From a virus (Duplodnaviria > Caudoviricetes): a stretch of 64,000 bases of DNA. Positions 8,361-33,453 of this stretch are shown here, piece after piece. Numbering within the stretch: position 1 is the first letter of the stretch; the number at the start of each line of letters is the position of its first letter. The stretch is from the IMG/VR virus record IMGVR_UViG_3300021255_000094, positions 2,896 through 66,895 of that record. The stretch is one strand, 5' to 3'. Made by a program: the position numbers and the translations under genes. Under the pieces are notes generated by a model. The model saw only the letters and a list, made by a program, of their open reading frames with translations. It was not told the origin of the DNA and searched no databases.

Positions 8361-9629
8361 ATGGTAGCATTACAGATTTTATCACAAGTATTACAGACTA
8401 AAGATATATCTATCATAGAATCAAATCAACTCACAGCAGACTATTTTCCGGACTATCAAGATGAGTATGAATATATAGTTAATCATTATAAAGAATATGG
8501 TAATGTTCCTGACAAAGCTACATTCTTATCTGACTTTCAAGACTTTCAAATTATAGAGGTAAATGAAAGTGAATCTTATTTAGTTGATAAAATAAGGGAA
8601 GAATATCTATATTATAAATCAGTGCCAGTTGTTCAAAAAGTAGCAGAGCTTTTAAGAACAGACAGTAACGCCGCCGCGGAATATATGATAAATGCTATGA
8701 AAGATTTACAGCCTAACTATAAGCTAGGTGGAGTAGATATTATTCAGCAAGCTATGAATAGATATGAAGCATATATAGATAGACGAGACAATCAAGATAA
8801 CTGGTTTTTTACAACTGGCTTTCCGGAGCTTGATGATGTAATACACGGCATAAATAGAGCGGAAGAGTTGTTTGTAATCTTTGCAAGATTGAATCAAGGT
8901 AAATCTTGGGTACTTGAAAAGATATGTACTCACATATGGGAGATAGGTTTTAATGTTGGCTATATAAGTCCAGAAATGGGAGAGCTGAGTATAGGTTATA
9001 GATTTGATACACTACATAAAAACTTTAGTAATAATGGGCTTATGTGGGGAAAGAAAGATTTTGATGATAAGAGTTATGAGAAATATATAAAAGAGCTAGA
9101 GAATAAAACTAATAAATTTATGGTAGCTACACCGTTAGATTTTGATAATAAGATAACAGTAACAAAGCTAAAGCATTTCATAAAGCAATATAAACTAGAT
9201 ATATTAGCAATAGATGGTATAACATATCTTAGTGATGAAAGAGGTAAACGAAATGATAATAAAACAATTTCTCTTACCAACATAAGTGAAGATTTAAAGA
9301 CACTAGGTATGGAACTTAAAGTACCAATCTTAGTAGTAGTGCAAGCTAATAGAAGCGGAGTAGTAGATAAAGATAGTGATGATTTACCTGAGCTTGAATC
9401 AATTAGAGATAGTGATGGTATAGGTCATAATGCAACAATAGTATTAGCAGTAAAGCAAGGACCTGATGGTGTTATAACTTTGCAAGTAAAGAAGCAGAGA
9501 AATGGTAGAGTTGGTGACAAGATAAGTTATAACTGGAATCCAGACATAGGAGAGTTCATAAGTGAGAATGGCTCTATTGGCACTGATAGACCAAGAAAGA
9601 AGATAGTAGAGAAGGAGGACGTGTTCTAA
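8361..9629 (+). CDS. dnaB: DnaB-like replicative helicase
   Basis: ARLNQGKS Walker A, ILAIDGITY, VQANR, KQRNG motifs. Confidence 0.88.
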   Translation: MVALQILSQVLQTKDISIIESNQLTADYFPDYQDEYEYIVNHYKEYGNVPDKATFLSDFQDFQIIEVNESESYLVDKIREEYLYYKSVPVVQKVAELLRTDSNAAAEYMINAMKDLQPNYKLGGVDIIQQAMNRYEAYIDRRDNQDNWFFTTGFPELDDVIHGINRAEELFVIFARLNQGKSWVLEKICTHIWEIGFNVGYISPEMGELSIGYRFDTLHKNFSNNGLMWGKKDFDDKSYEKYIKELENKTNKFMVATPLDFDNKITVTKLKHFIKQYKLDILAIDGITYLSDERGKRNDNKTISLTNISEDLKTLGMELKVPILVVVQANRSGVVDKDSDDLPELESIRDSDGIGHNATIVLAVKQGPDGVITLQVKKQRNGRVGDKISYNWNPDIGEFISENGSIGTDRPRKKIVEKEDVF

Positions 9630-16850: not shown

Positions 16851-16861
16851 GGAGATTGATA

Positions 16862-18412
16862 ATGGCACTATTTGAAATACCAACAAGAAATAATAGTCGA
16901 GAATCAGATAGTAAAATCATTAAGCAATCAAAGACAGTACACAAAGCTACCCCCTCTATAAAAGGGGGTAGTAGTTTACTAGAGAGAATATCCCAAGCGC
17001 AAGATTTAGTAAACCGAAAATTAAGTAAGTATAAAGATAAATATATCTTGATACAAAATGAGCAGATATTACATAATTATATAGATGAATGTATTAAGCA
17101 AGGAGTTATTAGTATAGATACAGAAACTACTGGACTTGACCCACTGTTAGATGATATAGCAGGAATATGTGTTTATACACCTAGTATGCCAGGAGCATAC
17201 ATACCTATCAATCACGTTAGCTATATAACAAATGAAAAGATTGCTAATCAATTAGATGTGGAATATATAAGAGCAGAGTTTGAACGTATTATTAAACCAC
17301 ATATAGATGTGATAATGTTTAATGCAAAGTTTGATATTAGAGTGTTGAGAAATAAAGTTGGTTTACATAATATTTACTGTACTTGGGATTGTTATTTAGC
17401 ACAGCGATTGCTTAATGAGAATGAACCTAGTAATGCTCTTAAAAAGTTGCATCAGAAATATGTGCTTAATGGTAAGGAAGATGCATTTACATTTGAAGAA
17501 CTATTCAAGGGAATACCATTTACAATGATACCTTTACAGACAGCAGTGCTATATGCAGGAAATGACCCAGTTATTACATATGAACTGTATGATTATCAAC
17601 GACAGTTTCTTAGGGAAGATTCTGATAGAGAAGATATGCGAAAATTGTATTGGGTATTGATGAATATAGAAATGCCTTGTGTTGATGCAGTATGTAATAT
17701 GGAAGATAATGGTGTACTCTTTGATATGCAGTATCAACAGATACTATCAGAGAAGTATAATAAGCTACTCACAGACAAGCTAGAAGCGTTTTATAAAGAG
17801 TTAAAGAAGTTTGATGATAAAATAGTCGAGTACAAAGCTAAAACGCAACATAACAAGCTAGATGAGCCTATAAATATAGCAAGCCCTACACAGCTAGCAA
17901 TATTGTTCTATGACATTATAGGTATAGAGGTTATAGATAAAAAGTCACCTAGAGGTACTGGAGTAGAAATATTAAAAAAGATGGATATGCCACTTGCAAA
18001 CACTATACTTGAATATAGAACGGTTGAAAAGCTAATCAGTACATATATTGATAAGTTACCTAATTGCGTAAACCCAAATGATGGAAGAATACATTGTAGC
18101 TTTAATCAATATGGTGCAGACACAGGAAGAATGTCAAGTAGTGACCCTAACTTACAGAATATACCATCACATAATAAAGACATACGAAAGATGTTTATAG
18201 CTTCTAATGAACCCCTTGATATTGTTGAAAGCAACAATAGTTTTACAGTAGATAGATGGATAGAAGTAAAAACATCTAATGGGTGGATTTATGCTGATAA
18301 AATAGAGGTTGGAGACAGCTTGGTTGTAGAAGAAAACGACACTCAATTAGAGATTATTGTTACCAAGATAGATAATCGTGTTGACAATAATCAGATAATA
18401 TTATATTATTAA
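16862..18412 (+). CDS. polA: Family A DNA polymerase N-terminal fragment (3'-5' exonuclease, thumb, start of palm) with Hint-like C-terminal tail
   Basis: SIDTETTGLD, FNAKFD, YAGND exonuclease motifs; GADTGRMSSSDPNLQNIP; stops before motif A. Confidence 0.9.
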   Translation: MALFEIPTRNNSRESDSKIIKQSKTVHKATPSIKGGSSLLERISQAQDLVNRKLSKYKDKYILIQNEQILHNYIDECIKQGVISIDTETTGLDPLLDDIAGICVYTPSMPGAYIPINHVSYITNEKIANQLDVEYIRAEFERIIKPHIDVIMFNAKFDIRVLRNKVGLHNIYCTWDCYLAQRLLNENEPSNALKKLHQKYVLNGKEDAFTFEELFKGIPFTMIPLQTAVLYAGNDPVITYELYDYQRQFLREDSDREDMRKLYWVLMNIEMPCVDAVCNMEDNGVLFDMQYQQILSEKYNKLLTDKLEAFYKELKKFDDKIVEYKAKTQHNKLDEPINIASPTQLAILFYDIIGIEVIDKKSPRGTGVEILKKMDMPLANTILEYRTVEKLISTYIDKLPNCVNPNDGRIHCSFNQYGADTGRMSSSDPNLQNIPSHNKDIRKMFIASNEPLDIVESNNSFTVDRWIEVKTSNGWIYADKIEVGDSLVVEENDTQLEIIVTKIDNRVDNNQIILYY

Positions 18413-18415
18413 GAT

Positions 18416-19123
18416 ATGATTATATATAAAGCAACAAACAAGATAAATGGTAAATGTTATATAGGGCAAACTCGACATTCTATTGAGTATCGTAAGCGCA
18501 GACATTTATCGTGTGCTAGGAAAGGAGTTAAAACTAATTTTTATAAAGCCATTCGTAAATATGGAGAAGATAATTTTGAATGGGAAATAATATGTAGCAC
18601 TAATGATAAACAGAAACTCAATGAACTAGAAACTTTCTATATAACAAAATATGACAGCATTAAAAATGGCTATAATATGATTGATGGCGGAGATAATAAT
18701 ATTATGGACATTGAGAGTGTTAAAACTAAACACGATAAAGTTATGCGTAGTTCCGAAGTGCGTAAAAAGATTTCAAATACAATGAAAAATAAGATTGCTA
18801 ATGGAGAATTTTTTACACCTGAACATAGAAAGAAGTTATCTGAAAAAGCAAAGGGTAATCATAATTTTGGCAGTGGTGATACACGCTCAATAGGATGTTA
18901 TTGTGTTCTTGAGGACGGCACAAAATATGAGTTTCATTCATATAGGGATGCTTGGAAGTGGTGGTTAACTATTGATAACCCATTTGATACAGATACAGAA
19001 TGTGTGTATCAGCGAAAAATAAAACAAAGTATAGAATGTGGATATTATACATATCATTATAATCGTAATAAAATTAAGTATGAATATCCAAAGTGGTTTA
19101 GAAAGGAGTGTGATGCTGAATGA
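18416..19123 (+). mobile_element. Free-standing GIY-YIG homing endonuclease gene between polymerase halves
   Basis: MIIYKATNKINGKCYIGQT, E..YI, GYN, NUMOD3-like TPEHRKKLSEKAKG. Confidence 0.9.
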
Positions 19124-20097
19124 AAAAGTTACTAGCTAGGAGAAACTATGTTCTTATGTCTAGTGACTATTCTTAGTCACAGCAAGAACCTAAATGTTTA
19201 GCGGCTTTGTGTAGAATGAATGGAGATTCACAGATGTATGATACATTTATGCAGGGTAAGGACTTGTATTCAGAGATAGCAAGTAAAGCATTTAATAAAC
19301 CTTATGAAGAGTGTCTTGAGTTTAATAAAGATGGAACTACTAATAAACAAGGTAAAGAACGTAGAACACAAGCTAAAAGTATTCTGTTAGGAGTGTTATA
19401 TGGCAGAGGTGTACCATCAATAGCAGAGCAGTTGAATTGTACAGTTGAAAAAGCACAAGCTATAAAAGACAGTGTATTCAGAGGTTTTCCAGCTATTAAG
19501 AAGTTTGAAAAAGATTCTTTAGCTATGGGCGAAGAGTTAGGTTATGTAACTACAATCTCAGGACGTAAGAGAAGATTACCAGCACTTCAATTAGATGAAT
19601 ATGAGTTTAAGTGGAAGAACGGTGTAGCTCCTGATAATGATTTATTAGACTTTGACTCAGATGCAGAGCAAGAGATTCCAGAGAGAACTATCAGAAAATA
19701 TCTTACAAAGTTACATAATTGTAGATTTAATGAGAAGCGCAAGATATTTGAGCAAGCGAATGAAGAGGGTATATGGATAGTAGATAATGGAGCAAAGATA
19801 GCAGAAGCAGTTAGACAGACTGTAAATGCACGTATTCAAGGAAGTGCGGCAGACCTAACAAAGCTTGCTATGATAGAGCTTAATAATAATCAGAAGCTAA
19901 AAGACTTAGGATTCAGACTACTTATACCAGTACACGATGAGATAATAGCAGAGTGTCCAGAAGAGAATGTCAAAGAATGTTCTAAATTACTAGCAGATAC
20001 AATGTCAAAAGCGGCGGAAAGGATACTAGAAATGCCTATTAAGTGTGATGTGACCATTACAAAAGAATGGTATGGAGAGGAGATAGTATATGAATAA
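19120..20097 (+). CDS. polA: Family A DNA polymerase C-terminal fragment; in-frame TAG at 19174-19176 inside motif A
   Basis: AAGGAG RBS and ATGA overlap at 19120; MKKLLARRNYVLMSSDYS*SQQEPK; motif B RTQAKSILLGVLYG; IQGSAADLTK; motif C VHDE. Confidence 0.85.
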
Positions 20098-21226
20098 AGG
20101 AGGGTATAAGAATTGTATAGACCTAACCCAGCAATTTAGATTCTGTGGTAATGCCTTTAGAGTTGACACCTATAAAGGATGTTCATATGGCTGTAAGTAT
20201 TGTTTTGCAAATTCTAATCAGACATTATATCACAATGATGGATTAGCTACTTGTGATATAAATGATTTTAAAAAATACTTTTCAAAAGCCTTTGATAATG
20301 ATAAGCCTACAAATAATAGGATTGTTGAGTGTTTGCGCCATAAAGTACCTTTACACTGTGGTGGAATGTCAGACCCATTTCAGAAAATAGAATTTGAATT
20401 GCATTTAACATATCAGCTTATAGAGTTGAGTAATAAATATGAATACCCTATAATATTCAGCACAAAGACAGCAAGTTTTCCGGAAGAATATTTTAAGATA
20501 CTAGACCCAAAGTTTCACGCTTTTCAATCTTCAATAATGGGCTGGAGTGATGAATATATTAGAAAGTATGAAACTAATACACCTATGGCAAGTGAACGTG
20601 CTAAGTTTGTGGCAAGCCTCAGAGAGCGTGGTTTTTGGTGCGGGGTAAGAATACAGCCTTGTATCAATTTAAACGAAGTATTAGAGCTTGTAGACCATTT
20701 AAAAGATATACCTAGCTATTATACTGTTGAGCATTTAAAGATACCAGTTGATAATGAGACAGTAAAAGCATTATTCAAAGACGAGTATCAGAATATTGGA
20801 TTTTGCAGAAGTCAAAATAATGTTAGAAATATAGAGATACAGCCTAATATAAAAAAATCAAACATTAAAGCTATTCAAGAGTTAGCTAATAGTTATGGAG
20901 TATTAGTAGGTGTGGGTGATAATGATTTACATTATCTATCACAGAGTAGATGTTGTTGTGGAATAGATACCATAGGTGAAAGTTTTGATAATTGGCTTAA
21001 ATATAATTTAACATACTTTATAACTGGTGATGTTGAAGATGATTTATGGATGCCAAAATGTAATCTTGCAAGTTGTTTTTATTCTGGAACAAGAATGAAT
21101 AGTAAAGTAGATGCTAAAGAAGCGACTAATAAATATATTAGGGATAATAAAGATTTAGTACCTAAAGAAGATAGAGAAAAAGTAAGTAAGATAACTGGAG
21201 TTAATTTCACAAAACAACTATTTTAA
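20090..21226 (+). CDS. Radical SAM protein (spore photoproduct lyase-like family)
   Basis: DTYKGCSYGCKYC CxxxCxxC; GGMSDPFQ; STK motifs. Confidence 0.85.
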   Translation: MNKGGYKNCIDLTQQFRFCGNAFRVDTYKGCSYGCKYCFANSNQTLYHNDGLATCDINDFKKYFSKAFDNDKPTNNRIVECLRHKVPLHCGGMSDPFQKIEFELHLTYQLIELSNKYEYPIIFSTKTASFPEEYFKILDPKFHAFQSSIMGWSDEYIRKYETNTPMASERAKFVASLRERGFWCGVRIQPCINLNEVLELVDHLKDIPSYYTVEHLKIPVDNETVKALFKDEYQNIGFCRSQNNVRNIEIQPNIKKSNIKAIQELANSYGVLVGVGDNDLHYLSQSRCCCGIDTIGESFDNWLKYNLTYFITGDVEDDLWMPKCNLASCFYSGTRMNSKVDAKEATNKYIRDNKDLVPKEDREKVSKITGVNFTKQLF

Positions 21227-33269: not shown

Positions 33270-33285
33270 GTTTATGTGCAGATAT

Positions 33286-33357
33286 AGGGGTATCGCCAAG
33301 CGGTAAGGCATATGATTTTGGCTCATATATTCGTAGGTTCGAATCCTACTACCCCCG
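33286..33357 (+). tRNA. tRNA-Gln (anticodon UUG), CCA not encoded
   Basis: GGGGTA/TACCCC acceptor stem, GCCAAGCGGTAAGGC D arm, TATGA-TTTTGGC-TCATA anticodon arm, GGTTCGAATCC T arm. Confidence 0.92.
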
Positions 33358-33453
33358 AATGGATGGCAGACGTGTCATTGGGTGTGAAAAGGACGGGAGA
33401 TTCACAGTTGTTAGGTTGAAAAGGCGGGCGACCTGACGTTATAGGAGAATAAA

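Follow-up and report, generated by a model that had tools for sequence, protein, structure and literature searches.

Organisation of the split polymerase locus

The window analysed here, a stretch of 64,000 nucleotides, makes up most of a 66.9-kb phage genome which has terminal repeats, is 100% complete as judged by CheckV, has a GC content of 34% and carries its genes all on one strand. Within it, the gene for a family A DNA polymerase is in pieces, in that a first half and a second half are separated by a gene for a GIY-YIG endonuclease, all three on the plus strand. The first half (16856-18412, ending in TAA; Pfam PF01612 and PF00476) contains the 3'-5' exonuclease together with positions 9-150 of the polymerase profile. 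Its homology to the polymerases of phages phiCTP1 and Dp-1 stops at K-M-F-I / K-M-F-I-A-S, after which come 68 unrelated residues (18206-18409). This C-terminal extension, or tail, is conserved in 11 split alleles. It matches no Pfam family, and a Foldseek search against the PDB gave no match at E ≤ 0.001; its AlphaFold2 model has seven strands at a pLDDT of 76, as such the tail is predicted to be a conserved small all-beta domain, which stays unclassified. A promoter-like site (18381-18409, TTGACA, 17 nt, TATTAT), identified by a consensus scan only and agreeing at 11 of 12 positions, is located within the last part of the sequence that encodes the tail, 7 nt 5' of the endonuclease start; from it the endonuclease and the second polymerase half may be expressed on a transcript of their own.

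The endonuclease gene (18416-19123, 235 amino acids) is free-standing and matches PF01541 with 31.6 bits against a cut-off of 22.6. Its TGA stop codon is overlapped by the ATG at 19120 that opens the frame of the second half, 11 nt after a GGAG-type ribosome-binding site recognised in the sequence (19102-19108); other alleles have GGAGG-type sites at the equivalent place. The second half starts with a leader of 18 codons (19120-19173), made up of a 9-residue basic extension followed by the strand of polymerase motif A, in which the catalytic Asp codon occupies 19165-19167. The frame resumes at 19180 and runs to 20097 (TAA included; PF00476), encoding the motif A helix and motifs B and C at 51% identity to phiCTP1.

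PolA is the only DNA polymerase family detected in this complete genome, and it is also the sole polymerase family found in five other genomes, 95-100% complete, that bear an insert of the kind described below. A nucleotide search of GenBank phages with the whole gene and a protein search of cultured phages with the tail returned no match, and no cultured carrier is known. The only hints of a host come from two relatives binned with Clostridia and Lachnospiraceae genomes, and rumen Clostridia are the probable hosts. The window has a single tRNA gene, for tRNA-Gln (UUG), at 33285-33358; a connection between it and the Gln codon at which reading resumes was considered and rejected, the tRNA being present in four of five unsplit relatives and in only one of five gap-bearing ones.

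A six-base insert in motif A

The sequence GAC TAT TCT TAG TCA CAG CAA GAA (19165-19188) lies inside polymerase motif A and reads D-Y-S-*-S-Q-Q-E, just as the original prediction had it. The same prediction held that termination at this amber codon would release an 18-residue peptide and that the site has six nucleotides more than are needed for DYSQQE. Both points are borne out, since the frame runs from the ATG at 19120 to the stop at 19174-19176, and D-Y/F-S-Q-Q-E-P is uninterrupted in phiCTP1, Dp-1 and 67 uncultured relatives, compared with which the window has exactly two extra codons. The UCU codon for Ser (19171-19173) is the proposed take-off codon; UAG (19174-19176), the only non-coding triplet of the insert, would be in the A site at take-off; and UCA, also for Ser (19177-19179), which matches the native Ser codon of unsplit genes, is the proposed landing codon, with CAG for Gln (19180-19182) as the resume codon. 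In other words, the three codons have the form of a stop flanked by two members of one Ser box, with resumption in frame. The insert is positioned 27 nt beyond the point at which the gene is split. What the original prediction did not take in is that it belongs to a homing-endonuclease cassette, which splits the gene 9 codons upstream.

A hairpin can be folded around the take-off, stop and landing codons (19150-19189) with a predicted energy of -13.8 kcal/mol, against a mean of -5.4 for shuffled sequences (z = -3.96), a value equalled by none of 200 shuffles. Its 7-bp stem (19163-19169 paired with 19174-19180) carries the take-off codon in the loop (19170-19173), with the stop and the landing codon in the 3' arm. 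The stem with UCU in its loop, as first described, therefore stands. The extension of it that was claimed in addition, an outer helix of 19150-19155 with 19184-19189, is present in the window, but it is rejected as part of the element, as it consists of coding bases that also occur in unsplit alleles and is not conserved across the alleles with an insert. The mean MFE is -7.7 in gap alleles and -3.0 in unsplit ones; a related hairpin occurs in most gap alleles and is absent from one (L240), in which the arrangement is UCU-UGA-A-UCU. The hairpin cannot form with a ribosome on the take-off codon, because the 5' arm is then inside the ribosome. Its role may be to act before or after the hop, or it may be a relic of the insert having arisen by fold-back.

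The palindromic look of the site might in itself suggest an error of sequencing or assembly, which the original prediction had listed among its alternatives, and nothing else speaks for one. The probable source run, as re-assembled by Logan, agrees with the window at every base across 18100-19700, and independent contigs of about 90% identity from two other studies (X3 record 16 and X9 record 25) span 19174-19179 without an indel and so retain the six bases; among the runs listed as containing the site none was of RNA, X9 and X10 being labelled metatranscriptomic but probably DNA, and the two runs from other studies date from 2025. Unsplit, insert-free alleles occur in the same runs as split ones, and inserts are found at the same spot in 19 other alleles. 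The six-base insert is real DNA, an assembly error is excluded, and the probability of an artefact of any such sort is negligible.

The allele series

Relatives were collected from IMG/VR and from metagenome contigs by searches with the second half, the tail, the endonuclease, the DNA pattern and an alignment of the second half, resulting in a set of 90 unique polA alleles, all on uncultured contigs. A metagenome scan by tail alignment gave only four new contigs, and two matches to the DNA pattern (L123 and L135) were discarded as chance hits in other proteins. The original prediction had pointed to related polA genes as the place to look for the insert, and 19 of them have one, of 4-16 nt, at exactly the same spot, making 20 distinct alleles with that of the window. 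The lengths are 4, 6, 7, 8, 9, 11, 15 and 16 nt, in all three frame phases and hence free of any triplet rule.

What is constant among the 20 is the way in which the inserts begin and end. Every insert opens with a stop codon (TAG, TAA or TGA) directly after the Ser codon of D-Y/F-S, and every one closes with a Ser codon directly 5' of the first Gln codon, where conserved reading resumes. The two Ser codons always come from one codon box, with UCU/UCA in 17 alleles and UCU/UCU (with a UGA stop), UCC/UCA and AGU/AGU in one each, such that TCT is at the take-off position in 18 of the 20 (TCC and AGT in the others) and the take-off and landing codons are identical in only two. The 6-nt form accounts for six alleles, the window's among them, and the 9-nt allele L158 resembles these in keeping the frame and having only one stop. 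Eleven others do not keep the frame. Each of the two 15-nt gaps contains two in-frame stops, and each of the two 16-nt gaps has a stop in the +1 frame that rejoining would need.

The codons at the site also differ between the two sorts of allele. In a smaller set of 17 gap alleles and 27 unsplit ones, TCT is found at the take-off position in 16 of the former and 2 of the latter (p = 6e-9) and GAC is used for the catalytic Asp in 17 and 18, respectively (p = 0.008), figures which take no account of shared ancestry and can only be indicative. At the site, the unsplit alleles of that set most often have TCA for Ser (15 of 27). On both sides of the gap the flanking codons vary mostly synonymously, each side in its own frame, and, amid variable synonymous sites nearby, the position of the stop and both the take-off and the landing codon are conserved. 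Among gap-bearing alleles dN/dS of the second half is 0.02-0.10. At the level of sequence comparison, these patterns establish purifying selection on both flanks of the gap.

The homing-endonuclease cassette

The element to which the insert belongs is made up of the C-terminal extension of the first half, usually a GIY-YIG gene, and the short basic leader with which the second half begins. In all 20 gap alleles the split is at one and the same site, and both the tail and a basic leader, of 17-21 codons, are present. The insert is in none of the 67 contiguous alleles. An endonuclease gene is present in 14 alleles, every one of which has a gap (14/14), and in 13 of these it is of the GIY-YIG type. 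The remaining allele (L213) has an HNH_3 gene (PF13392; L213:2002-2442) in place of GIY-YIG, together with an 8-nt UCC/UCA gap, from which it follows that the nuclease module of the cassette is exchangeable. Another split allele contains an extra ORF of 232 residues between the tail and the endonuclease gene (L031:3134-3832), with similar DNA in L030 and L032; it matches no Pfam family, and has F-P-C-like and glycine-rich motifs that are faintly like those of a cytosine methyltransferase.

The link between cassette and insert is seen also where the cassette has decayed. At least four alleles (L011, L020, L121 and L153) keep the gap after loss of the endonuclease gene, and two more (L152 and L248) are split, lack the endonuclease gene and have lost the gap cleanly, with D-Y/F-S-Q-Q restored. 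The leaders of these two lie at about 8750-8820 and about 2440-2500, respectively; in L248 the first half is not adjacent, and the leader apparently starts at a non-canonical codon after a strong ribosome-binding site.

Relatives of the window's endonuclease, with 61-81% identity, are found at the same polA site. The dN/dS of the endonuclease is 0.08-0.22, and its dS of 0.4-0.8 and more among relatives indicates that the cassette is old. In the window, by contrast, it is a recent acquisition. A near-isogenic relative (L003) is unsplit and has neither cassette nor insert, with nucleotide identities of 98.2% and 95.3% on the two sides, the former running up to 18201. Directly after the gap, a tract at 19195-19264 on the plus strand has 15 mismatches to L003, followed by none until 19392. 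It is a probable co-conversion tract brought with the cassette, and the clustering of mismatches just after the gap implies that the insert travels with the cassette as one converted tract. Because the cassette is recent here, conservation of the window's own polymerase says little, and the argument rests on the allele family. The PF01541 match, the presence/absence polymorphism at a single site and the divergence beside the cassette are those of a GIY-YIG homing endonuclease, and cleavage activity is predicted.

An intein or intron scar had been offered as another origin for the insert, and no intron core or Hint domain was found. A group I intron is rejected, as 17500-20200 contains no Rfam match at E ≤ 1 and the second half starts at an ATG with a ribosome-binding site to itself; as a positive control, the same Rfam library finds a group I intron in the polA of L006 (L006:3128-3375, 56.7 bits). 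That intron (RF00028), with an HNH ORF at L006:3374-3811, is at a different polA site, D-P-N / L-Q-N-I-P, and L011 has an insertion at this second site, with an HNH ORF in two pieces and no Rfam match. An intein or split intein is likewise rejected, given that the tail has no Pfam or fold match; the tail and leader together come to only about 77 residues, the leader is followed by Tyr, and its last residue varies (N, S, Q or R).

A proposed translational hop and its alternatives

In the proposed scheme, a mobile cassette entered the one polymerase gene that the phage has, at the junction of the F-I-A-S and Y-V-L-M codons, leaving two genes that flank the GIY-YIG gene, the first with a tail of 68 residues and the second with its own ribosome-binding site and 9-residue basic leader. 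A ribosome would start at 19120, decode 18 codons and stall when UAG is in the A site and peptidyl-tRNA-Ser is paired with UCU. The tRNA would then release, the mRNA would shift by 6 nt, and the tRNA would re-pair on UCA, such that decoding restarts at CAG. Nine nucleotides would thereby yield a single Ser, and the product would read D-Y-S-Q-Q-E-P-K, as in unsplit relatives, with the two polymerase halves presumably assembling via their added tails. UCA would be the native codon, so that what the cassette in effect does is to place a new take-off codon and a stop before it, as is suggested by UCA being the commonest native Ser codon in unsplit genes. By spoiling the target of the endonuclease, the 6-nt insert would leave the carrier genome uncut, as in T4 MobA; on the strength of that analogy, and because the endonuclease never occurs without the gap, the probable effect of the gap is that the genome is spared by its own endonuclease.

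From sequence comparison it is likely that TCT TAG TCA is the site of a programmed translational hop from UCU to UCA over UAG. All 20 alleles can be explained by a hop that leaves the first Ser codon and lands on the second, whereas no single rule of readthrough or frameshift explains them all, because the inserts occur in all three phases and some have extra stops. The take-off, stop and landing logic of the original prediction thus finds support in the allele series. A tRNA-Ser with anticodon UGA could read UCU weakly and UCA strongly, which would favour both leaving and landing. Against a hop, the two Ser codons mostly differ, as UCU and UCA do, so that re-pairing depends on which host tRNA-Ser reads UCU, and release factor 1 may compete at UAG. 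A U after UAG is not a notably weak context for termination. Judging by the alleles, the hop would seem to call for Ser codons that match, for a stop, for a leader peptide that is short and basic, and perhaps for the small hairpin.

Reading of the amber codon as sense, by a near-cognate or suppressor tRNA, would produce D-Y-S-X-S-Q-Q-E with two extra residues, and was an alternative put forward at the outset. The window's insert is indeed a multiple of three with a single stop, as in the other alleles of the 6-nt form (6/20 in total). Yet of the 14 alleles of other lengths 13 are either out of frame or have two in-frame stops, the 9-nt L158 being the exception, and the 11 of 20 that are out of frame contrast with programmed readthrough, for which the stop is in frame in all homologs. 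As such, neither readthrough nor a simple frameshift can rejoin most of the alleles. The extra residues would, moreover, adjoin the catalytic Asp, and the alleles that have lost the gap return exactly to D-F-S-Q-Q. TAG terminates 21 of 75 long plus-strand ORFs in the genome and no suppressor tRNA is found in the window, where the single tRNA is for Gln, points on which a global recoding of TAG is rejected too. Readthrough is accordingly improbable. Very improbable, in turn, is a polymerase gene that is simply broken, in which a recently arrived cassette has left a dead or passively carried polymerase and the insert is a repair scar at the cut site. It would suit the small difference between the window and unsplit L003, only 2-5% outside the cassette, and the resemblance of short, variable inserts to imprecise repair. 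It does not account for one rule holding in 20 alleles whose endonucleases have diverged to dS values of 0.4-0.8 and more, or for take-off codon, stop position and landing codon being conserved amid varying synonymous neighbours; nor could a cassette that kills its carrier's only polymerase spread, and PolA is the sole family in six nearly complete genomes.

The polymerase might also be made in three pieces, with termination at UAG, a separate downstream product from reinitiation, and the 18-residue peptide as either a chain in its own right or an inert one. Here the two 16-nt gaps (L032:4167-4182 and L122) need to be considered, in that they contain an ATG in the resumed frame inside the gap, right after the stop in that frame, so that in these two alleles termination and reinitiation could compete with or replace the hop. 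The window for its part has a TTG at 19207 and an ATG at 19216 downstream. Most alleles, however, the window's included, have no start codon between the gap and the codons for Q-Q-E-P-K, which vary only synonymously in the resumed frame; a start at 19207 would lose the motif A helix, and a free 18-residue strand bearing the catalytic Asp is unlikely to assemble. A three-piece polymerase thus has a very slight probability.

Significance and relationship to known systems

Programmed bypassing is known from gene 60 of phage T4 and its homologs and from yeast mitochondria. The sequences make it likely that these rumen phages have a natural family of very short hops, of 4-16 nt across a stop, with an origin independent of T4 gene 60, which would serve as the immunity device of a cassette in the catalytic motif of the polymerase and would be the first natural stop-hop. 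If this is true, the locus offers a minimal and tractable model of bypass in translation systems of the Firmicutes type, and its alleles, with gaps of eight lengths, take-off/landing pairs of four kinds and three different stops, are a ready-made mutational series on what a hop needs. It would also be the second time, independently of the first, that a homing endonuclease protects its carrier by means of an untranslated insert, suggesting a general strategy for the invasion of the most conserved, and hence best, target sites. In practical terms, gene callers will label such polymerases as broken or as lacking a motif.

Full-text searches of the literature found no published report of this polymerase case. 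According to a 2016 review by Atkins and colleagues (PMC5009743), no natural in-frame stop-hop was known, and shorter counterparts of bypassing had long been expected. Synthetic stop-hops in E. coli, in which matched codons flank a stop, were made by Weiss, Dunn, Atkins and Gesteland in 1987; as that review summarises them, they have the same pattern as the UCU UAG UCA of the window, but were engineered and of low efficiency, whereas the present example is natural, is in an essential gene and comes with an allele series. In the mitochondria of Magnusiomyces capitatus, the Byp elements (Lang 2014; Nosek 2015) are likewise mobile short inserts in essential genes that bypassing renders harmless, with take-off and landing codons that are not always identical. 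They differ in being 27-55 nt long, mitochondrial and similar to GC clusters, in having an unassigned sense codon where a stop is in the A site here, and in having no tie to an endonuclease cassette. An essential gene split round an endonuclease gene, with tails that aid reassembly, is found in nrdA/mobE of phage Aeh1 and in gp43 of Aeromonas phage 25 with its GIY-YIG gene; these are without an untranslated insert, unlike the present family, where every endonuclease-bearing allele has one.

The closest parallel is the T4 gene 39/mobA/gene 60 region, in which the translational bypass is of 50 nt (Huang 1988; Bonocora 2011; Manning and Atkins, bioRxiv 10.1101/2022.08.31.505936), a cassette that Manning and Atkins call unique among phages. 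In both, an essential gene of replication is divided by a homing endonuclease, and the two resulting ORFs have gained conserved tails at the C and N terminus; the second ORF is interrupted after a few dozen bases by a short insert that is non-coding, the codon next to the take-off codon is a stop, and the landing codon matches that of take-off. In both, too, the gap can outlast the loss or exchange of the endonuclease and can itself disappear later; the series of decay seen among the present alleles, with the endonuclease lost and then the gap, matches that described by the same authors for the T4 MobA element. The differences are in the parts. The host gene is here a family A polymerase (PF00476) and in T4 a topoisomerase, the nuclease is GIY-YIG (PF01541) as opposed to the HNH enzyme MobA, the gap is 4-16 nt as opposed to 50 nt, and the take-off codon sits within the loop of a hairpin where that of T4 is in the 5' side of a stem; furthermore, the nascent chain is only 18 residues long at take-off, and the phages probably infect rumen Clostridia. 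The two are unrelated in sequence, and the overall picture is one of the same architecture in a different family.
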